A stretch of DNA of 56,967 nucleotides, the filler included, from Dirinaria sp. TL-2023a (Eukaryota): the NCBI GenBank assembly GCA_051941275.1. It is 5 parts of 5 records of this genome, joined end to end, with 100 filler letters (N's around TTAATTAATTAA, not from the genome) between each part and the next. Parts side by side here need not be neighbours in the genome. Positions count along the whole stretch, not along the records: positions 34,268 to 45,578 come from JAVEBF010000856.1; 4 more parts are not named here. One strand, 5' to 3'. A model generated the notes under the pieces. That model saw only the letters and a program-made list of their open reading frames with translations, was not told where the DNA came from and ran no database searches. Both the position numbers and the translations under genes were made by a program. Numbering within the stretch: the first letter of the stretch is position 1; the number at the start of each line of letters is the position of its first letter. This document shows, in pieces, positions 6,588 to 45,678 of the stretch.

Positions 6588-8057
6588 ATGCCACCCGAAC
6601 GAAAATACGCTGCTTTGGTAGACCTTGTACGTAAGGAAGAGGCGCAGCCTACAATTTAAGCTCTAGCTGACAGATTTAAGTAGGACGCTGCACCGGAGAT
6701 TTACGAAACACCTGAATTAACGGACGATACCTCGACGCTTCCGGTACCCCATGCCACTCCAGCAAAGCTTCAAACAGCACGCTGATATACTCACTAGGCT
6801 TCAACTAATCTTCGCTCGGAATCACCCGCACCATCATATGATGAGGCTAATGAAGACGAAGCAACCGAAATAAGTAGACGGCACATTAACCCCGATGAAG
6901 CCCGGACGCACTTCTTGTCTAACGATGTGGAGGCAAAGGAAGCTAGACACACTAGCCGAATCTCAAGCAAACGAAGATTCTACAAAGAATCTGACAAAAG
7001 AAGCCGGTTTGATGATCCCGAGTCCGTTGAGAAGGGGCTTCTGAGCCAAGATGACGATGAGAGCCTCGAGAAGAGGCTGGCTAGGCTACGGAGAGAAATA
7101 GCGGAAGTTAAAGCAGAGTCTGAAAGAAGAAATGCAGAGAGCGAGAGCCAAAATTTGCAGAGACAAGATACTAGCACGCACGATATTGACGTCTTGAGCG
7201 AGACTCTGGATAATATTGCCTCTGCGAATCATCCCGATAATTCTGGTGTTGCCAGTAGGCTAGTGCAGCAGGTTAAAGCATCATCAAACGGCCAAACTCA
7301 AGCCCATGATAGCATTGGTCCAGAATCCGACCGTCTGCCCGAAGTGGGTCCAACATACACCCTCAGCTATGCTCCAAAATATCAGGATCGTCATACGCTC
7401 GCCAAAGTTGCTGACTTCGATTCACGACTGACATTGTTGGAAACCTTTCTAGGCATTGACACCATTGCATTGCCCACACAAGGTAGACTTCCGGGCACAG
7501 CTATTCTGCCAACGCTGCAGTCCCTTGATCATCAAATTTCCGTTGTATCAAACTCGTCGGATAATTTTCTCGATTCGACCCGTCAAAAAATAATGCAATT
7601 GGCCCATGATGCGGAGAATCTTACCGAAGCTCGCAAGTCTGCGAAAGCAGCGCTTGAAGCGTTGGGTGACAGCCAAAGCTCGACCGCAAAGCCGTCTGAA
7701 GCAGCGACTCAGGTGCCTCATACGCTTGAAGACCCAGAACAACTGTCTAAAATCAATGCTTTATATGGTACTCTCCCCACTATAGAATCCTTGTCTCCTC
7801 TCCTGCCTCCTTTATTGGATAAATTGAGGTCTTTACGGTCTCTCCACGCAGAAGCTGCAAACGCGAGCCAGAATCTAGCGGAAGTCGAGAGCCGGCAGAA
7901 GGCCATGGCCGAGGATCTGCAGATCTGGCGAGAAGGATTGGAGAAAATTGAAGAGAAGCTCAAGGAGGGTGAGCAAACTATGACTGGGAATATGAGTACA
8001 GTCGAGGGCTGGGTGAAGGAACTTGAGGGGAGAATAGGGGAGGTCGTTCAGTCATAA
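6588..8057 (+). CDS. DCTN2: Dynactin p50 subunit (dynamitin), 452 aa
   Basis: Exons 6588-6626, 6684-6743 and 6798-8057 are joined by GT-AG introns. N-terminus KYAALVDLDAAPEIYETPEL, ESLEKRLARLRREIAEVK and LPPLLDKLRSLRSLH are dynamitin signatures. Confidence 0.9.
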
Positions 8058-11329: not shown

Positions 11330-11429
11330 NNNNNNNNNNNNNNNNNNNNNNNNNNNNNNNNNNNNNNNNNNNNTTAATTAATTAANNNNNNNNNNNNNNN
11401 NNNNNNNNNNNNNNNNNNNNNNNNNNNNN
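11330..11429. other. Artificial contig-joining spacer (44N-TTAATTAATTAA-44N)
   Basis: Identical 100-nt structure at four positions. The core encodes stop codons in all six frames. Confidence 0.98.
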
Positions 11430-22751: not shown

Positions 22752-22851
22752 NNNNNNNNNNNNNNNNNNNNNNNNNNNNNNNNNNNNNNNNNNNNTTAAT
22801 TAATTAANNNNNNNNNNNNNNNNNNNNNNNNNNNNNNNNNNNNNNNNNNNN
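22752..22851. other. Artificial contig-joining spacer
   Basis: 44N-TTAATTAATTAA-44N. Confidence 0.98.
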
Positions 22852-34167: not shown

Positions 34168-34267
34168 NNNNNNNNNNNNNNNNNNNNNNNNNNNNNNNNN
34201 NNNNNNNNNNNTTAATTAATTAANNNNNNNNNNNNNNNNNNNNNNNNNNNNNNNNNNNNNNNNNNNN
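34168..34267. other. Artificial contig-joining spacer
   Basis: 44N-TTAATTAATTAA-44N. Confidence 0.98.
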
Positions 34268-35132
34268 AATCGCCAATGATTCTTTGTCAGAACAAGCACT
34301 CTCAAAACCGCTATCGAATCATACGAATAATCAAAACGTTGATCATTTAAAAATCGAAATCATTCATGTCTCTGAAATTAGACGCAATCATCTGCATTTT
34401 TTAGTGTAATGATTCAATCAAACTTTTCGTAACGAATGAATATTCATTGAGAATCTGAACTTCATCGAATTAATTGAAGACTTTTATAAAGATCATTCTG
34501 ACGTCGTGAGCGCGAACTCATGAGCACAATATATACTCGTCGCGAAATCAGCATCGACTTCGAATACAGTTATAACGATGACGAGAATTCTCGAGATCAT
34601 CTAATGTAACTTGCTACAACGATTTCAACACTTTCTAATCTATTGTGTGAATACATTTCTGTCATACATAGATCATAAAAGTTCTGTTTCACATAAAATT
34701 GTCTAACATACACGCATACGCAAAAAAATACTTTACGTAGACGCTTTTTAATCAAATATTTTATTTTCGATTATTTTACTAAACAGAGTCACATTTATTA
34801 TTCGATTCGCATCTTCGAGACTTAGTCAAAATAAAAATAAGATCACTAAAGCTACTCGACAACAAGAATCAACTCGCAGACGCTCGTTTTTTTCGAAAAG
34901 AGAGAATACTGTCACGATTTCATTTTACTCACTCGAATTAAGTGTTAACGACATGAATGTCGTTCTCATTTTCATTTCATGCTATTCGACGTACTAATTT
35001 GAGTACTGAACGCAGGTCGAGTTCATAGTTTCTTCTCTTTCTTTTCTTTCTTCTTTGCGAATTGTCTTGTTATCAATGTACCTAACACATTAATACCAAC
35101 ACTCCTAAGATTACTAAGCCACTTCGATGACA
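34268..35132 (+). mobile_element. Degenerate Ty3/Gypsy chromovirus 3' end: integrase tail and chromodomain relic, polypurine tract and 3' LTR
   Basis: The frame from 34269 reads ANDSLSEQALSKPLS...KIEIIHVSEIRRNHLHFLV**FNQTFRNE*IFIENLNFIELIEDFYKDHSD, i.e. a mutated DPLPGQ linker and chromodomain. A purine tract GAAAAGAGAGAATAC directly precedes TGTCA (34910), which is matched by TGACA (35128-35132), giving an LTR of about 223 bp. Confidence 0.8.
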
Positions 35133-36568
35133 GCACCCTTAGTACCGCTGATGAGGGTGTGTTGGAATTTATCGATACCAGGGCTCAATCAGGATTCGAT
35201 CCGACTAGTTGTCCCGTCGTTTCCACCGTCTATTGTACTTAACCTGAGAAATCTCTGCCATAGCTTTTTCCTCCTTAATGCCATTATCATTCTACTTTGG
35301 TGCCTCCCATTGCATATATCCCAACACGAAACATCGGAGACTTGGACTGTTGTCCCAGAATGATCAAAGCTCTATGCACCGCATACAGAAGTGCCGTCTC
35401 TGGCAACTAATCCATTACCCCAATTCAGATCTTTCATCGTCCACATGTCTGATAAGTTCTTCACAGATAATATCCTGTACTTCACACAATGTTTCCACTA
35501 AAGTTTATTAGAAGCAGAGACACGGTCAAGCATAACGCTTAACAGAGACTATAATCATCTTTTAGAAGCTTGAGCTAAACATGATCGCTTTTGGAAGAAG
35601 TCAAGATGTGCAGCATATCGTAGTCTCATGACGCAGTCAGGCAACGGTTATAGCGTGGAGACTCTTTCAGCTTGAACTTAGGAGACTGAACCTGGTTTTT
35701 TGATGGCAGTCTCCTACACGGTCGTTCTGGTACAGTACAAGCCTTTTCCTCATCTTACCTCTTTCTTTTCTTTTTTGCTATTGGCTCAAGAGTTTGTGAT
35801 GCTACGGAAACTCATCAATAGCCAGCAGTGACTAGCAATGCTCTCAAGATCACGGTAGGAGTAAAGATGAACGCTGACCAAGAAGATTTAGCTAACGCGC
35901 TACCGACGGCTAATTGAAAGCAGGGTGTCATTCGACTCAATTACATCTGGCCATGGGCTATGACATTGCATCTAATTACTCTTGTTCTGCGGACTGTGAG
36001 CGTCACTGTTCCAACCGAAGTTACCACCTTACTTAATCGATACTCAACTAACTGTCCGTGGTGAAGACTGAATCATACAGCAGAATCTATGCGCAGGCAT
36101 GATTTTTAGGGTCGCTACAATTTCTTGTTCTTTAATCAAGTCATCTTCAGCCCAAGGGTGCGATTCATTATTCAAAAATAACGACACATTGAAGCTTCGA
36201 ACTGAAGGTTTTGTACTGCGTTAATTATTAACAGTCAGAACGTTAAGTTCCATTTTCGGATGTCTGCACTGATTCGAATCTGTATGCACTATCTCTTCGC
36301 TTAACGAACAATCGCAGAGATATCAGGATCTGTTATACTTTGGGGTTTGAGGCGTATATCCTCTTAATCCGCACTATCTCACATCACTTAATAACTGTGA
36401 GAAATCTCTCCCCATTGCGTCACAGCGGTTTGATTCAGTCTTTGTCCGTGGACATGTGTTCCATAAATGGAAAAATTTTTGCAATCAGTACGATCTAAGC
36501 AGATCAGTAATGCGAACATTCTCTCGTCGCCAAAGTCCTTGCAACCTCTTTAAGCACACACTCAAACC

Positions 36569-37802
36569 TCAATACGACTCCCTCGTCCCGTTTTTAGCAC
36601 TTCTATAAATCGCCTCAACCATCCGATGCCTTACAACCGCCTCCTCAAACCCCGTATAATTTCCTTCCTTCTTACTAGTAAAAGCCTGATAAACACCCCC
36701 AATTCCTCCAAAATACGGTACCTCCGTCTGCAGCTCCTCCCAACCTCTCTCCTTTGAAATATACAATTTCGGCTGCTCGAACGCTAAAAAGGTATTCTTT
36801 CCAGAGAGTCTCAGGGACCCTTTTTCGCCGCTGATAGTCCACTCAACGCTATCAGGCGTAGCGTTCGTGGTTGATGCGTTCATGAAGCTGACACTGACGC
36901 CACTTTTGGTCACACCTTGGATCATGATGGAGTCCGCGAAGGTGCGCGGAGCGGCCACTTCGGAACCGTCAGGTTGGGCAAAGTGCACGGTTGGGAAAGT
37001 GATGGCTGTGGTGGCGTTGAGGAATGAGAATTCGCCAAGGAGAAAGCAGAGTGGATCGAGGAGGTGGGCGGTGTTGATTGAGATCTGGTTTGCTCCTAGA
37101 AGCAGATCTATCAGCCCTCCGATCTGCTTCACGAATCTTGCCGAAAAGGGTAAAGACTTTAAAAATTAACCAGATGACTCACCACTTTCCGTGTCATTGA
37201 AATAACGATACTTTTCTGGGAATTTGCTGACAAGCATACTGCTAGACGCGAAGACATTCGTGGTAATGACTCGCCCTAAGGCGCCGGAGTCAATCATCTC
37301 TTTTGCCTGAGAGGTATCCTTTAGCTTCATGCACCTAAGAAAATTTAAACCAGCTCAACCCTCAAATTCTTACCTTCAGAATCACCGGCAAACACCTCGC
37401 CTGCAAGCCCACCGCAGTCCTCACCGCCTGCTTCTTCGCAAACGCAGCAAGCTCCTCAGCTTCCTCAACATTGCGAGCAAGAGGCCATTCGACAAAAATC
37501 TCTTTCTTCGCCTCCAGAATTGGGAGCGTTAGCTCCTTATGTAGGGGCAGCTTAACAGACACAACGACCATATCAACATCGGAACTTTTTGCAATGCCTT
37601 TTGCGCTATGAAAAGCGTTTGTAGTAGGGATCTTGTGATATTCTGCAGCTGCTTTAGCAGTTTTGTCGGACGAGGTAGCCACAGCTGTGAGTTCGTAGTG
37701 ATCAGAGAGGGGTTTGGATCGTAAGGGGTCGACATGGGCGAGGTTTGCCCATGCAGTTGGGTCTGTTGAAAGACCTATGATCCCCACGCGGGTTAGAACC
37801 AT
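36569..37802 (-). CDS. Gfo/Idh/MocA family NAD(P)-dependent oxidoreductase (Gal80-like subfamily)
   Basis: MVLTRVGIIGLS...WANLAH, VDMVVVSVKLPLH, IFVEWPLA and VGLQAR. Two GT-AG introns, and C-terminus FEEAVVRHRMVEAIYRSAKNG. Confidence 0.88.
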
Positions 37803-39446
37803 TGTGATGAGACTGGGAAGACTTGTTTCGGCTTTGATAGAGACCGATGCCTTTAGAACTGCGCTTGAGGTAATAAAAGGTACAGGAGAGCCTATTGTAC
37901 AATTTGACTTTTCCAAAAGCAGAGCGTTTTGATTAATCAGCCATCTCAGAGCGCTAGCTGACAAACATTGCGATCAGCATCACGTGACGGGTCATTACCC
38001 AAGAAGCCTTTCGATTTCCCCCGAGTATCCTGGGCATTAGTAACATAGTAAGAGAAATTTTGAAAAGTTTTCAATGGTGTTTGCTCTTACACAAGCTGGG
38101 ATCGTGATTTCGGGCGTTTTAGACGAGGGTTTCTTCTTTATTTTCTCTTTTTGAACTGCTAGCCATGTCTGTACGAAGTTTGCCGCGGAAGTACCCAAAA
38201 TCAGTTCGTCTTGAATGATCAATCTTTCAAATTTTTTCTATCTCACTGAACAATGAAGTCTCTTGGATTCGGTTTCTCAGCCTGGCCGAATCCGGACTAG
38301 CCAATGCTGATCATACAGGCTGACCAATGGAGAAAAGTGAAAATCGCACGGTCTATCAATAGCCGATATCGGTTTTCTCTCCACCTTTAGCGTCCAGATT
38401 GCTGATATCTCGGCTAGATCATTTTTGGCGACTATCGGCGGGAATTTAAGAAGAGTGTTCATGTCATTAGTAACTTGGATCTCACGTTCGGTGATTCTGA
38501 GATGCTTCGTTACGTTATCAATAATTATTCCCAGTAATGAAAAATCTTGACCTTGGTCCATTGATGTTTCTGTCGATTACTCTACCGCTTGAGTCTCTTT
38601 ATTTCTAGGTACGCTAGCCATTCTTCGTGAACTCTCTCGCTCAGCAGCTTCAATCGGATCCTGAGGAGCCGGATTCCCGTCTCTAATCGATTATCTTCAA
38701 AATATCAACGCTAAGGCGGCAAAATTGTGTCACGAGCAGCGATCACAATTTCGATGATTATTGAACTTCAGATTTTGCTCATTTTTTTGTCCTCGTTCCA
38801 ATGCACGTCTTATAACTCTGCTTCCAAGCCAAACGCAGAATATAGCGCAACTGGTTACAAGAAGGAGTTTCTTGCAGTGTGATTTCTATATTGGCAAGGC
38901 TATCAGCACGTTCAGTATTCAGTAACAAGGCATTCCCCTGTATGCTTAGTGGAACGCTTTATTAGCGGGCTCGCGCACAATGTGCTCAGACTTGATAGGC
39001 TGCAGAACTCAAATTCCTAGATGGTTGAAGGAAAGAGAGAGAGTAATCATTGCTAACCTTAAGGTCACATCAGCTGAGCTTTAGTTGTCTTCATTGCCCT
39101 TTTTGTCATGACCAACAACTTTATCGAAACAAGGCGAGCTTCCACTTTTATTGATCAGCTGTCTTTTCCCACGCAAATGCAGTCTATACTGAATTATCAA
39201 CAAGTGATAGCTTTCGTCTAGGGCTTATATTTACAGCGGCTGGCACTAAGGTGGTCATAACTTAACGTACTCAGTCTAATCCTCCAGTATGGCGCCTCTG
39301 GAGAATTTTCAAAATTGAATATGAATATCTGACCTTTAGACACTGACATATATTCGATTCTTTCCAATGACCGATTTCTTTTCGTGGAGTTGAGCAATCT
39401 TGAATCGAACGTCATAACAGGTTCACTAGCAACGGATCGGAACACT

Positions 39447-42400
39447 TCAGTCCGTCTGGGTGCCTCTTTCTCGATGAAATACGCGAGCCACATAACCCTT
39501 CACCCGTTCGAAATAAGCCGCAAAAAGAGCGCAGGAGATAATCAAAAACGTGAAGGGCAGTTCGACAGCCCAGAAAAGTCCCTGGCCCGAACCCATATTA
39601 CGAATATCGTTGGTGTTCATACCGAAATATCCAGTCACGAAGGATAATGGCAGAAAGACGATGGTAACGACAGTGAAGATCAGAATTGCTCGATCGTTGG
39701 TCTCCGACTTGATAGATATTGATTGCGCAGCCTGCAAATAGCGAATTAGCTGTGTTAGATGAGGCTCAACCGTATACTGGTGGTCTAATATCAACGTACT
39801 GTGTTCTGAATGGAATCAGTTTGAATCAGTAACTCTTCAAAGTCTTCAATACGGCGGTCAACCTCGAGACGCATTCTTTCAACAACTCTATGAGGTAAGC
39901 TTGTCGATGGTAGCGAGTATATATCTCCTGGAATATCATATATATCATCTTGGCTGCCCTGTCTGTAAAGTGCATCCCAGAAGCTGTGCAGAACGTCTCT
40001 TTGTTTCAATAGAACGCTTTTGATGACTTCGATCTCATCACGAAGCATCTTAATGTCTTCGTATACTCTCACGCTAGCTTTATGACTGACCGAGTATTGC
40101 TGGAATCACTTATCAGTCTGCTGATCAGCGATCACCTAACGAACCGGAGACCAACCATCTTAATTGCGTACTCATTGTACAATTCAGTCAGGTAGAACGT
40201 TGCTCCTTCAGGCGACAACATGTTTTGCAAATTTTCCATCATAATTGCAAGGAGACCCTCACCATACACCGGGTCAAAATTAAGTTCGGCCTTGTCAAAG
40301 CCCACCATTCCAACCAATTGCTTCATGCTTTCCAATAAATACCTCTGGCATGCCGAAAAAGTGGCGTCCAGCTGCTTCTGTGCATACGCTGAACGAGAGG
40401 GTGCACCAGCAAAGACCAAAAGCACCACTAGACTCTTGAACGCGATGGGCGCAGCTCGAGGTAGGTAGAGGAGTTCTGACTGTTCTCCGTCTGGTCGCAA
40501 TACACCGGCTCGCATGTCACGAATCGTTCTCAGGACCTGAAGCAGTTGGAGCAAGATGTTCTCGACACGAACGTGGTCCTGGTAACCAATCAGCATTTAC
40601 CTTCTTCCATTAATAAAACTATTCAGCGATTCGCATGTTTCGGGCCCCCTTCGTGCACGAGTCTGCAAAAGTAATGAATGCGTGAAGTCGAGCAAACCAA
40701 AAACTCGAGCGTTGTTGGCTAATATGTGCCGATCATAGATGCCCGCAATTACTTTGGAACATGATCTCTACACCATCTCTCCCATATGTACAGAACACCC
40801 GTTGATTTCGTCCACCTGCCAGATCGATGGGGAGATACTCAATCATGATTGAAAACATACCTCATCCCGTAACAATCCGTAGATTGCTCCCCAGAACTTG
40901 CCTACTATCACTGAACGGTTCTCGACGGGAACAAAAGCGCCCAAGATACGTTTCGCGGTTTTCAACAACCTGGTCTGGTTTTCGTGGAAGATGACAGCAG
41001 TACCATGGTTTCCGTTCAAGGTTCCAAGATCAAGCTTGATAGCTTGATCCTTGAGTATAGCTTCGCTTTCACTCGCTTGCCGCTCTTGTCCATGCTTATA
41101 AAGAAGCTTTGCTGCGATGTTCTGTGGAAAAGATCGGTCTATCGTAACAAGGTCCTCATGGATCTGTTCAAGCACCATGCCGAGTTTGAAAGCATCTGAT
41201 AAAGTAGTCTTCTGTGATTTCTCCTCTCCATCCATGTCGATTGATGCAGAAGCATCTTTGGCTGATTTCCCCAGCTTCGCTCCTTCCTTTTCATTGCTAG
41301 CAAGCGGATCCCGAGCATCTAACCGCTGGGACGGTTTTATTTGCAGCCCTGTAGACCACAGAAAGATAGGTTGAGATGTGTCGTCCTGGTCTTGTAGAAG
41401 CTCGTGGCTCAAATGATTGATAGACCGTTGACGATACGAGAGAGGCATAATCGCCTTCGCTGCCTCAATTCCGCTTTTAGGTGCTCTGCCTTTTAAGCCT
41501 GACCGCTCCACCTGTTCGTTCGCAAATCGATCTGTGAAGCTCGGAAAAGGTTTTTTCATCTCACTCAATCCTAACTCGGCCATTGTAGCAATAATACGTT
41601 GCCTCGGAGGAAAATAGCGGACTTCTTCTAAAGGCTCTCCTATATGGAGCATCCTATGTCTGGCACGACCTCGCGATTTTAGGTGGCCTTCGATGCCAAA
41701 ATCGTCATAGAGGCCTTGATGTCTTGGCTCTAGCTCATATCTTCTATCTGGCCTCTGCCATATCTTCTCGTCTATCTCGAGACGAGGAATGCCCTTGAGA
41801 TTAGGTACCCGGGGAGCTGAACGGTCTTCGTCGGCTTGGAATATTCTACGCGATCCTCGAAATATACGTGGTTCCCTATACCGTTCTCGAGTTCCATAGG
41901 GTTCATGCGGTACAGTTGTTTCGCCGTTCCCATCTTGATCGTCATATCCTGCGGGGAGAATGGATGTATTTTCTACATTATTTGCGTCTACTGGAACCTT
42001 TGTTTGGTTTTGCGTAGAGTATTCATCATAATCTTCCTTGATTAAATGTATCAGTTTGATTTCCAGCTCTGGCACCAGCTTATATTTCAGCGAGTATATC
42101 AGCTCGTCATTACCTTGTTGCTCTGCATTTCGAATTTCTTCATATAATTTGTGTAACTGGTGCTCTGCGTTCGAGATAGGATCAGCTGTGTCGGCAGTGT
42201 TTGAGCGACTTGAATAAGGACTAGAGGAAGTGTAGCCACGGTGAGAAGACGAATACGTCGAGCGGCTTCTACGACTTGAGATAGAGCCGGCATTAGAATC
42301 CTCACTGGAATCGGTGCTATCAACCTGTCCATCCTGCCCTCCACCAGATGTATAATTTGTATCGCTACGTTTAACGAGCAGAAGGCGCATCAACGGCCTC

Positions 42401-43761
42401 CTTGATTCTCTCAGCATCATTCTCCAAGCATATGGTGAGATGACTGTTTTTCGGTTGTCCAAAACTAGCTTAATTCTAAGTCTAACTCTGGGTCCCAGCA
42501 GACGACGAAGCATATGGCGACTTTCTGCTGGCTTTCTACTTATTATCATATGAACAAGTTCCTAGATCATTATCAGCGGAATGAAAATGTCATCCAGATT
42601 TTGGTGTTTACGTAGAAGGTTTGGCAGGATGCCAAAGGTAAGTAGTACATGTTTTCTTCAGTATCTATGAATTGAATACACCACGATGACTTATCGTGAA
42701 GAGCTCTAGGATATGGTCGAAGATCAAGCGTCTTCCCGCGCACAGCGCTGGTTTCGAGAGGACTACAGGTAAGAATGGTACCTGGAGTGATCAGCGTGTC
42801 GTTGAGTGCTGCTCCCTGTGAAGAGGGGTAAGTCTAAAAATAATCGGAACCTACGTTTACCGATAATCAATGCCCAAATATACGAAATATACACAAGATG
42901 GTTCAGACCAGCGCCACCAGACTTAGCGGCGACTTGCTTAGAATCTCGATTTTGAGTTGAGTCTAATTTATACCTCCATTGCATGAGCCCACGAGCCGGA
43001 TGCCCAAGAAAGTCTCTGGGAGGCATAGTCCGTCGGCTTGGTTCTAAGGAGAAGATCGGCATGCAGACGAATGATACTCTTCGAAGCTTGCGGCCACTCT
43101 TGTCGTTAGGATCCCGCGCTTGACCCAGAATCGTCACTGGTTCCAGGAACCTACCATGTGCGAACCCTTTTTCGCACATTTTCTCGACTTTTTGGAGAAC
43201 GCTATGTGCAAGTTGACGGTAATCATCGTCAAAATCGGGCAAATGTGCCTGCTCTGATTACCATCATATCTAGAAAGATTACAAGGGTGCATACGCGAAA
43301 TTCGTCGAGCGTCGAGGCTTCACTATATAGGTGGCTATACAACTGTTAAGGGTGGTCGGTCACATGACGTACTGCAGCACTCACATCCATTGTTGATTGG
43401 GCAGAACAGCCGCTCTGTCTTGATTTGAAATGCCATCCTTTGTGATAAGAGCGACGACATCTCTTCCATTTTCGTCTTGGCTGACCAAAGTACTGAGGAT
43501 CTGGAGAATCTGAGCCCGCCTGAGTGCAACAGGTTCGATGGATTTCCCTGTCTCTGTCATCCCACTTTGCAGCCTTGAATGATTTTTCTCAATGCCTTGT
43601 TCTTCATCTAAGATCTGCTGTTGCTGATTTATAGGTGTATTGAAAAATCGAATGTTGGTGCTCGACCTAGGGGGGGGCCTTTCTGCTGAGGCATGGTAGG
43701 CTCCGCCGTATTGTGGTTTGCGCGGCGTCCGGGAAGACCTTACTAGCACAGGAGCGTCCAT
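39447..43761 (-). CDS. Large fungal protein with C-terminal CorA-like two-TM/GMN module
   Basis: Exons can be traced in frame via GT-AG introns from MDAPVL. The C-terminus RAILIFTVVTIVFLPLSFVTGYFGMNTNDIRNMGSGQGLFWAV follows a coiled-coil stalk. The start codon is less certain. Confidence 0.8.
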
Positions 43762-44639
43762 CTCGTAACGAGATCAGCGACAGAAAGTCACAGCACGAGC
43801 TCCTACAGTGTTTCACTTGATGATGGCGTCTTACGAGCCCACGCGGATTTGACGGACCTGGCAATTGAACATACGATGCAGACTTACAGTGCAGCTGAAA
43901 GCTCACATAGGAGGATCAATATGAGAGCACACCAGGCGCGAATATACCTGGCATGCTCACAGAGCACAGCTCTGTTAAAGATCAAGGGGCTTCGATATCA
44001 ACATTGATTGATTGGAAGACATGATGACACGCTGGGCTTTTCTAAGCGGCAAACCGGAAGCCGGCCCGGAAAGCTAGCCCTGAATAAGCCCTACATAAAG
44101 AAAAACCAATCCCAGTTCTTGGCAAATGATTCGATTATCATCGATTCGAACACCATGCATTTTCTTCTCCAGAACCCTGCTCATGCCAATTATTACCAGG
44201 AATTAAGTTCTGTCACATACATTTGATTATGAATGCTCAGTGAAATTCAAAGCTCCTCTGGAACTCGTTGCTTGTCACCCACCAAAGCAATTTGCCCACT
44301 TGCAATGAATCCTTGTGATGTGTCGCGGAGATTTGACCAGTGCTTCTGACTTTAGTCCTTTGACCCTAGGGAAATTCCATAGATAGTTGGCACCTTTCAA
44401 GACGTCCGGGATGAAAAATATGATGTAGGGTTTTAAGGGTTTGTAGTCAACTTTCTGGTTGAAGGTGACGTAAACTGCACAACTGCATGACTGCAAATCC
44501 GACTGACGAATGTGCTGAGCGACTGTGATTGTTGACGAAGACGTCAAGGGAATCGCGCTCCTGTGCGTATTTGTATTAAAGCTACCACTATAATTGAAGA
44601 TATGTAAGATTGGAGTGTAATAAATTATTATGTTCTGTC

Positions 44640-45578
44640 TTACAAATAGACCCACACACTGTGAGTGGCTTGAAAGCTAACGATGAGAGTTTCTTGGAGG
44701 ACGAAGAGCATCGCCGCTGCTTCTACCTCGACAGAGAGCTCAGCGAAGACACTGCACTGAATTTAATGAATCAGTTTAGCTTGAGTGATGATCGAGATGA
44801 ACTATCAAGGTCGTTGAAATTAGATCGAATAACGAAGACATTCGATGAAAATCTTCGCTCGATTCAATTTAATAATCACGAGAGGAACGAAGCGAGTAAA
44901 AATCAGATTTAAAAACAATTCGTGTAGTTGTGATATTTGTACAGCAAATCTCAATGCAGAACTCACGAACGAGATGTTGTGTCGAGGAGATTAAGTTTGA
45001 ATGTGACTTTCTAATAAATCTCTACGTTTTGGTAGATGGTTGTTGATACTCCGCTAGATCTCGTACAGATTTAGCTAGATCATAGCGTTCCAAATTGATC
45101 AAATTTTACGTTCGTCGCTAAATCGCATTAGCACAAATTCAAGCTGTCTTCCCGACAGGATAGAAAATTTAGTTGTGGCGGAAGTTTCGAAGAAAAAATC
45201 TTCTGTTCTTGTAGACGCATGTATCGAACAACCATCATGTCCGCCAGAAGCAAGAGTGTCTTTGTTAGACAAGTTTCCTCAGCAGAGGAGCCACCTAAAA
45301 ATATCACTCAAGATCATCATACTCTCCCTCATCTCCATAATGTCCTCCTTCGTGTCCACCTCTATGGTTTCCGCCTCGGCGACGGCCACTTCCACGACTT
45401 CCGCGCCCACCACGCCCACGCCCACCACGCCCACGATATCCTCCTGCATGATGTCCTCCTTCGTGATGTCCACCTTGATGAAATCCTTCTTCATGATAAC
45501 CTCCCTCTTGATATCCTCCTCCATGATATCCGCCTCCACGATGTCCTCCGTGATGTCCGCCGTGATGTCCACTTCGCC
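44640..45578 (-). repeat. Probable mutated repetitive element at the contig end, including a Gly/His/RGG-rich coding fragment (45578-45304)
   Basis: 44730-45150 is depleted of CC/GG like the Gypsy relic. A minus frame reads RSGHHGGHHGGHRGGGYHGGGYQEGGYHEEGFHQGGHHEGG...RGRGGRGRGGRG...EYDDLE*. Boundaries and family are uncertain. Confidence 0.5.
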
Positions 45579-45678
45579 NNNNNNNNNNNNNNNNNNNNNN
45601 NNNNNNNNNNNNNNNNNNNNNNTTAATTAATTAANNNNNNNNNNNNNNNNNNNNNNNNNNNNNNNNNNNNNNNNNNNN
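45579..45678. other. Artificial contig-joining spacer
   Basis: 44N-TTAATTAATTAA-44N. Confidence 0.98.

Follow-up and report, generated by a model that had tools for sequence, protein, structure and literature searches.

Which process could have emptied a stretch of fungal DNA of every CC and every GG dinucleotide and left CpA and CpG in place? The question is raised by a locus in a stretch of 56,967 nucleotides from Dirinaria sp. TL-2023a (GenBank assembly GCA_051941275.1), referred to here as the window, which joins five contigs of 11329, 11322, 11316, 11311, and 11289 bp; contigs that adjoin in the window need not be neighbors in the genome. The fourth of them (JAVEBF010000856.1, positions 34268 to 45578; hereafter contig 4) opens with a tract of 705 bp that belongs to the relic of a Ty3/Gypsy retrotransposon. 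A preliminary description, made from the sequence by eye, had proposed that this tract was hypermutated in a manner resembling repeat-induced point mutation (RIP), with CpC rather than CpA as the target. We hold with moderate confidence that a RIP-like process directed at transposable elements (TEs) converted C to T on both strands with CpC specificity, and possibly with a weaker CpT specificity.

Composition of the tract and identity of the mutated DNA

The absence of CC and GG that had been reported from manual reading for positions 34310 to 35014 was recovered exactly, with 0 CC and 0 GG over 705 bp. The gap between the CC that precedes the tract (34308-34309) and the GG that follows it (35015-35016) amounts to 707 bp; of all other gaps in the window that do not span a linker, the two longest measure 113 and 102 bp. 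In a 200-bp scan of the entire window, this tract is the only one to reach zero. The base counts (A, 244; T, 231; C, 132; G, 98) predict 38.3 CC plus GG, the few dozen that had been anticipated (Poisson probability of zero, 2.2e-17), and 20,000 mononucleotide shuffles of the tract gave a mean of 38.0 (standard deviation, 5.2) and a minimum of 18. The other steps said to be abundant are indeed so, with 52 CA, 29 TG, 41 CG, 39 CT, and 27 AG. The expected products of a change at the first cytosine are enriched: TC occurs 64 times and GA 53 times, at observed/expected ratios (o/e) of 1.48 and 1.56 compared with 1.12 across the remaining window sequence, and CG stands at 2.24. The alternative products show no such enrichment, with CT at 0.90 and AG at 0.80 compared with ∼1.05 elsewhere in the window. 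Both strands are affected, as CC and GG are equally absent and the excess of TC is close to that of GA.

The depletion is local. The o/e of CC plus GG is 0.88 in the rest of contig 4 and 0.92 to 1.00 in the other four contigs. Two CC remain within the initial 42 bp of contig 4, at 34273 and 34308. On the right, CC/GG density is back to normal between 35015 and 35081, an interval that marks the edge of the compositional change, the end of the element not being placed independently of it. Directly 3′ of the tract runs a polypyrimidine stretch of 65 bp at 35016-35080 (TTTCTTCTCTTTCTTTTCTTTCTTCTTT...) that is itself without CC or GG and could belong to either the element or the flank. The coordinates of all features are collected in Table 1.

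Table 1. Coordinates of the tract, the element parts, and associated features, counted along the window
Feature	Position	Strand	Evidence or composition
Ty3/Gypsy integrase C-terminal linker and chromodomain relic	34269..34532	+	One frame; phmmer, tblastn, hhalign
Continuation of the polyprotein tail, other frame	34541..34606	+	tblastn with P0006 residues 174-196, 61% identity, E 0.004
Non-coding 3′ part of the element (presumed 3′ untranslated region or long terminal repeat)	34607..35014	+	CC/GG-free composition
Core hypermutated tract	34310..35014		0 CC, 0 GG, GC 0.326, CpG o/e 2.24, TC 1.48, GA 1.56, 13 TCGA
Boundary zone	35015..35080		One GG at 35015, then 65-bp polypyrimidine without CC/GG; normal density from 35081
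Second, weaker tract	44700..45150		CC o/e 0.28, GG 0.26, CG 1.62, TC 1.51, GA 1.51; 9 CC/GG left
Linker of 100 bp, N44-TTAATTAATTAA-N44	11330-11429, 22752-22851, 34168-34267, 45579-45678		Identical sequence at four sites

Homology searches agree with the earlier assignment of this DNA to the integrase-chromodomain region of a Gypsy element. A window peptide of 85 residues (P0003; frame of 34269, stops read as X) was compared by HMMER with 1.84 billion representative proteins and gave two matches at an E value of ≤0.001, P0004 (185 residues; phmmer E 2.6e-21; 60% identity) and P0005 (97 residues; E 2.6e-8; 62% identity). A three-sequence profile then retained 25 proteins at E ≤0.01 among 359 candidates, including P0006 (90% identity to P0004), whose residues 85-172 align by tblastn with positions 34269-34532 (59% identity, E 2e-27). 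Pfam searches of the X-read translation of 34269-34523 returned no family. P0004, P0005, and P0006 carry the SH3_Tf2-1 domain of Ty3/Gypsy integrases (E 1.6e-9 to 4e-16), and in the more distant relatives P0008 and P0010 this domain is followed by Chromo. In hhalign, the family profile (A1) matched a profile of 13 chromodomain-bearing relatives (A2) over the SH3, linker, and chromodomain columns (99.7%, E 3.8e-27); the window peptide alone gave an E value of 0.006. The alignment of the window sequence runs from just past the SH3 domain and takes in the chromodomain columns. Judged by homology, the tract is therefore the C-terminal end of the polyprotein of a Ty3/Gypsy element, broken by one frameshift and followed by ∼400 bp of non-coding element DNA, and the mutated element is a dead copy of the chromovirus type, of which the 3′ end is present.

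The first frame is interrupted by four stops (TAA at 34407; TGA at 34410, 34437, and 34521), and the single frameshift falls between 34532 and 34541. Within 34607-35014, tblastn found no protein match past ∼34661, and inspection by eye for the limits of a long terminal repeat (LTR), namely a polypurine tract, a TG...CA pair, or inverted ends, gave nothing convincing. The linker at 34168-34267 directly precedes the tract, which therefore begins contig 4, and the rest of the retroelement is absent from the window. No second copy was detected in the window by relaxed blastn or with a purine/pyrimidine alphabet (noise-level matches only), a blastn search of the tract against plasmids gave no match, and scans of viral contigs and genome contigs revealed no relative of the element. 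A metagenome scan with profile A1 recovered only L001/L002, an intact Gypsy sequence that is 39% identical and normal in CC and GG (o/e 0.77 to 1.26).

The closest public proteins are encoded on ENA or Logan contigs of 1.0 to 1.5 kb (ENA contigs of 1022 and 1339 bp for P0004 and P0006, respectively), and two of them share the peculiarity of the window copy. P0006 contains no proline and no glycine in 219 residues, and the single proline and single glycine of P0004 both lie within its last eight residues. Among 18 intact relatives, pooled, proline makes up 7.0% and glycine 4.3% of the residues, frequencies at which a protein of 219 residues would lack both with a probability of ∼4e-12. Both proteins are open frames with 5 to 7 tryptophans at conserved tryptophan positions. 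Since TGA is the one stop codon that mutation of the CpC type can generate, we infer that these frames were called with TGA read as tryptophan, which is probably how both entries arose. At least three family members, on different public contigs, have thus arrived at the same purged state. P0005 looks only lightly affected.

Direction and neighbor context of the base changes

The direction of change can be read from the codons that stand where intact relatives have proline, glycine, or tryptophan. The preliminary description had restored DPLPGQ from DSLSEQ, two chromodomain tryptophans from TGA, a WxP motif from a stop followed by Ile-Phe, and HPD from HSD. All of these codons are present: GAT TCT TTG TCA GAA CAA at 34278-34295, TGA at 34410 and 34437, TGA ATA TTC at 34437-34445, and CAT TCT GAC at 34494-34502. 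We then considered conserved columns, which for proline are those in which at least 60% of the 18 intact relatives carry it. At conserved proline columns, the window reads TCT, TCG, TCT, and GTG, P0006 has seven serines and one valine, and P0004 has five serines, two leucines, and one valine, so that serine fills 15 of the 20 cells, leucine 2, and valine 3. Conserved glycine columns hold Asp, Glu, or Asn instead. Two of the three conserved tryptophan columns read TGA in the window and the third reads TTA, where P0005 also has leucine; a further TGA at 34521 stands opposite a tryptophan of P0004 and P0006. Relative to P0005, the closest and less mutated protein, the five aligned prolines have become serine in three cases (TCT, TCA, and TCG) and leucine in one (CTC), with CCG kept at 34308, and the two aligned glycines read GAA and AAC. 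Overall, the window codons at conserved proline, glycine, and tryptophan positions (TCT, TCG, TCA, CTC, TTC, GAA, AAT, and TGA) are separated from the expected ones by no more than two changes, each from C to T or from G to A.

Proline replaced by serine, together with tryptophan replaced by TGA, indicates that the first C of CC was changed, because a change of the second C would have given leucine and TAG. The claim that the 5′ C of CpC was converted on both strands is therefore upheld by the codons at conserved columns, by the excess of TC and GA, and by the simulation described below. The same observations (TGA rather than TAG, serine rather than leucine) bear out the statement that the signature is not that of APOBEC3G.

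These codons also bear on the idea that the sequence family natively avoids CC and GG or was selected to do so. P0004 and P0006, as open frames of 185 and 219 residues, would fit such an avoidance, yet open frames are what TGA-as-tryptophan calling should produce without any selection. Besides its frameshift, the copy in the window carries four stops within the frame, of which three stand at tryptophan positions, and the motifs RPSKKL, GPF, DPLPGQ, and W..G..W..P, conserved in all intact relatives, are destroyed in it. We regard avoidance as highly improbable.

Cytosines in other contexts were spared. Six family-invariant His or Gln positions are still encoded by CAT or CAA in the window (three family members compared), as expected from the earlier claim that CpA was left alone. 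Decay of CpG had likewise been said not to fit, and the 41 CpG kept (o/e 2.24) agree; the tract retains 21 TCG, 22 CGA, and 13 TCGA.

For a quantitative comparison, saturating changes were applied in forward simulation to 75 control segments of the window, and the resulting dinucleotide profiles were compared with that of the tract (sum of squared z-scores). Conversion of the 5′ C of CC gave a sum of 39 to 41, compared with 95 for unmutated DNA. Conversion of the 3′ C was rejected (125 versus 41 for the 5′ C). Adding loss of CpG to the 5′-C model always worsened the fit (78 to 276), and adding loss of CpA brought little help or did harm (32 at 20%; 42 and 99 at 40 to 60%). The best fit was obtained when 20 to 40% of CpT was lost in addition, which lowered the sum from 39 to between 18 and 20 and moved the z-score of GC content from −2.4 to −0.2. 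Taken at this locus, the direction and the context of the change are well supported.

Processes that could have produced the tract

A change that is local and complete, affects both strands, takes the form of transitions, follows a 3′-neighbor rule, and strikes a transposon amounts to RIP-like behavior. In the process that we favor, a cytosine would be deaminated when its 3′ base is C, and perhaps less often when that base is T. Acting to saturation on both strands of an integrated, double-stranded copy, the process would turn every CC into TC and every GG into GA and leave CpA, CpG, and most CpT alone; proline and glycine codons would be removed and tryptophan codons would become TGA. The most likely agent would be a RIP-type defense in which a DNMT-like RID or DIM-2 homologue acts on repeated DNA during the sexual phase, with its 3′-neighbor preference shifted to the context least liked by the RIP of Neurospora. 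For other Lecanoromycetes, RIP and homologues of RID and DIM-2 are on record (PMC12542154). The repeat dependence, the enzyme, the timing, and the genome-wide reach of the process are inferred.

Classical RIP, as it occurs in Neurospora crassa and other Pezizomycotina in dependence on RID and DIM-2, resembles the tract in most respects: C:G-to-T:A transitions on both strands, saturation, a context set by the 3′ base, and what appears to be confinement to transposons with a sharp edge beside normal genes, in a subphylum to which the host here also belongs. It differs in the context itself, which here is CpC and perhaps CpT, with CpA and CpG spared, and in its outcome, as GC content here falls only to 0.33 and TGA is the sole stop created. 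The preliminary description had warned that standard RIP indices would miss such a tract, and they do: TpA/ApT is 0.67 and (CpA+TpG)/(ApC+GpT) is 1.05, compared with thresholds of >0.89 and <1.03, respectively, as these are quoted in an excerpt of PMC3897900. A departure from CpA has a parallel in the Pucciniomycotina, where the available part of PMC3318451 describes a RIP-like, TE-associated C-to-T hypermutation with a TpCpG target (Microbotryum, Puccinia, Melampsora, and Rhodotorula), which shows that target sites vary between fungal lineages. The Pucciniomycotina pattern is not the one seen here, as 21 TCG and 22 CGA are kept in the tract and the host is an ascomycete.

A context set by the 3′ neighbor is typical of DNMT- and RIP-type processes, whereas AID/APOBEC enzymes depend on the 5′ neighbor. 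APOBEC3G deaminates the 3′ C of CC, giving GG to AG and TGG to TAG, and does so on the minus strand only. This background bears on a second explanation, in which a single-strand DNA cytidine deaminase (AID/APOBEC-like or of another fungal family) edited the complementary DNA (cDNA) of the element during reverse transcription and a dead copy was then integrated. The substrate, an LTR retrotransposon, would be suitable, the victim and the CC site are shared with APOBEC3G, and editing that stops at the end of the element would agree with the abrupt change seen on the right, at 35015-35081. However, editing of cDNA is strongly one-stranded, and here both strands are purged equally, with C-to-T and G-to-A changes both seen on the plus strand; the 3′-neighbor context with the 5′ C of CC edited is the opposite of that of APOBEC3G; and complete saturation together with two purged relatives would be unusual for sporadic events. 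Editing of this kind is known to yield hypermutated proviruses, as stated in the accessible portion of PMC4866542. For this locus, we judge it an unlikely explanation.

A third explanation dispenses with an active mutator. The silenced element would have been methylated with a preference for CpC (or CpY, a cytosine before a pyrimidine), and its 5-methylcytosines would have deaminated spontaneously over a long time. This would account for C-to-T change on both strands in a context set by the methyltransferase and for the confinement of the change to the TE, and the available part of PMC12542154 reports homologues of DIM-2 from Lecanoromycetes. Against it, the complete loss of ∼80 sites would take long, yet the frame is unbroken over 88 codons, with one frameshift in ∼115 codons and 59% identity to P0006; three family members have all arrived at the same purged end state; and a fungal methyltransferase with a CpC-only preference was not found in the literature examined. 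Slow decay, too, is improbable in our assessment.

Two sources of damage were set aside by reasoning only. Ultraviolet (UV) damage has TC as its main target, which is here an enriched product, and both UV damage and a bisulfite-like artifact are at odds with a change confined to the TE.

Several observations weigh against a CpC-specific, RIP-like origin of the tract or limit its force. Its GC content of 0.326 is below the 0.388 ± 0.027 obtained under pure CpC loss, CT and AG fall below that model, and the CpG o/e lies above it; this residual points either to CpT as a weaker second target, so that a cytosine before a pyrimidine would be affected, or to an ancestor more AT-rich than average. Compared with P0005, the window also differs outside CpC, with TAA at a lysine column, CTA for an arginine, and A in some places where a GG ought to have kept its 5′ G. 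Such differences are expected from divergence, as the relatives are not the ancestor, and they still limit the codon argument. The ancestral state is inferred from proteins, and the DNA evidence consists of one 705-bp locus. P0004 and P0006 have tryptophan where the window reads TGA, which fits only if TGA was called as tryptophan. Repeat dependence is hinted at only by the position at a contig end and by the three purged family members. CpC ranks last in every characterized RIP system covered here, the order being CpA > CpT > CpG > CpC in Neurospora and CpA ∼ CpG > CpT > CpC in Trichoderma reesei (PMC5496416). Finally, the offset of contig 4 in GC content and tetranucleotides, described below, leaves some doubt about which member of the lichen metagenome carries it, its assignment to the same fungus resting on the binning.

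Published accounts of RIP in lichen fungi come close to the present locus in their hosts (mycobionts), their victims (Ty3 LTR elements), and apparently their sharp gene/TE boundaries; in the excerpts available, those on Cladonia rangiformis (PMC12542154), Xanthoria (10.1101/2025.11.25.690456, in which RIP is reported), and Endocarpon pusillum (PMC3897900) are based on GC content (10 to 20% in Cladonia) or on CpA indices and contain no context analysis and no CpC. RIPCAL defines a CpC-to-TpC class with an index of its own and yet reports CpA dominance in the available part of its description (PMC2621366). A survey published in 2025, which covered 1,239 fungal genomes, comes to the conclusion in its accessible text that a preference for CpA is common to RIP-like defenses and that few clades have them in an active state, and its main text as available lacks the term CpC (PMC12543289); a survey of Ascomycota (PMC7882544) contains neither "CpC" nor "Lecanoromycetes". 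A full-text literature search found no CpC-dominant RIP-like process, and as subscription journals and supplements lay outside that search, a prior report is possible. The case for a CpC-targeted RIP-like process is built on a single DNA locus, together with two to three proteins related to it. More tentatively, and with less confidence than we place in the process itself, the lichen-forming Lecanoromycetes of this group may run a RIP variant of inverted preference, in which CpC is hit fully, CpT partly, and CpA and CpG never.

Host, contig surroundings, and implications

Pfam annotation of the window genes (dynamitin, HRI1, PEPCK_ATP, PAN2, SIR2, and others) yields a fungal gene set. The dynamitin open frame at 6798-8054 groups with Ascomycota in a protein atlas and is 100% identical to an NCBI protein from a metagenome-assembled genome of Dirinaria sp. 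TL-2023a (Q9191_005516), and its next named relatives are from Heterodermia and Physcia at 51 to 52% identity. The host is a lichen-forming Lecanoromycete whose genome was assembled from a metagenome.

Contig 4 departs from the other contigs in GC content (0.454 versus ∼0.50) and in its tetranucleotide correlation to them (0.55 to 0.68, compared with 0.67 to 0.81 among the others). The pattern could then be real and contig 4 stem from another eukaryote of the lichen community, through mis-binning or a chimeric contig; the metagenomic origin of the contigs and these offsets would allow it, and the atlas look-up of one contig 4 gene gave no taxonomic signal. The genes of contig 4, however, have short introns of fungal type (GTAAGA...TAG), the TE family is eukaryotic, and the kept TCG speaks against a Pucciniomycotina yeast. 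We consider such an origin very unlikely, and it would alter the host and not the phenomenon.

Further observations concern the remainder of contig 4. Outside both tracts, from 35100 to 44650, the o/e of CC plus GG is 0.88 compared with 0.92 to 1.00 in the other contigs, and that of TC plus GA is 1.19 compared with 1.09 to 1.12; this offset could reflect a slight spillover of the process that acted on the tract, an effect of the compartment, or a problem of binning. The second, weaker tract lies near the opposite end of the contig and includes an open frame of 103 codons (44601-44909). No Pfam family was found there in six frames, and the window contains no paralog of it; this tract may be a further repeat relic that was mutated in part, and any connection with the main tract would be conjectural. 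The contig terminates, at 45300-45578, in a repeat with a 15-bp period that is rich in CC on the plus strand, with eight in-register copies at 45409-45570, probably a minus-strand gene for a Gly/His-rich repeat protein that continues beyond the contig end. An open frame of 572 codons on the minus strand (40843-42561) has no Pfam family and two relatives (76% and 46% identity) among 5.8 billion proteins and is a putative lineage-restricted gene.

RIP is the textbook case of a genome defense in fungi. Its spread among them is being mapped by CpA-based indices, GC valleys, and AT-rich k-mers, and a saturating, TE-limited process that acts on CpC only is invisible to all of these. A variant with inverted preference, if it exists, would escape TpA/ApT indices, GC-based thresholds for ripped DNA, and AT-rich k-mer screens. 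The ratio (CpC+GpG)/(TpC+GpA), which RIPCAL defines and which is rarely reported, is worth adding to RIP screens. There is also a consequence for sequence databases. As only TGA stops are created, gene callers that use an alternative code may report relics of this kind as long proteins that contain tryptophan and lack proline and glycine, and protein databases may hold such relics as spurious Pro/Gly-free entries.

If the proposed process is real, the neighbor preference of the RIP machinery can turn to the context least used in model species, and lichen fungi would be a place to look for RIP of the CpC type. If, beyond this locus, the lichen-forming Lecanoromycetes of this group run the variant with inverted preference, the kingdom-wide surveys of recent years would underestimate both the diversity and the spread of RIP-like defenses, and the enzyme responsible would be a natural cytosine modifier with a CpC-selective target-recognition region.

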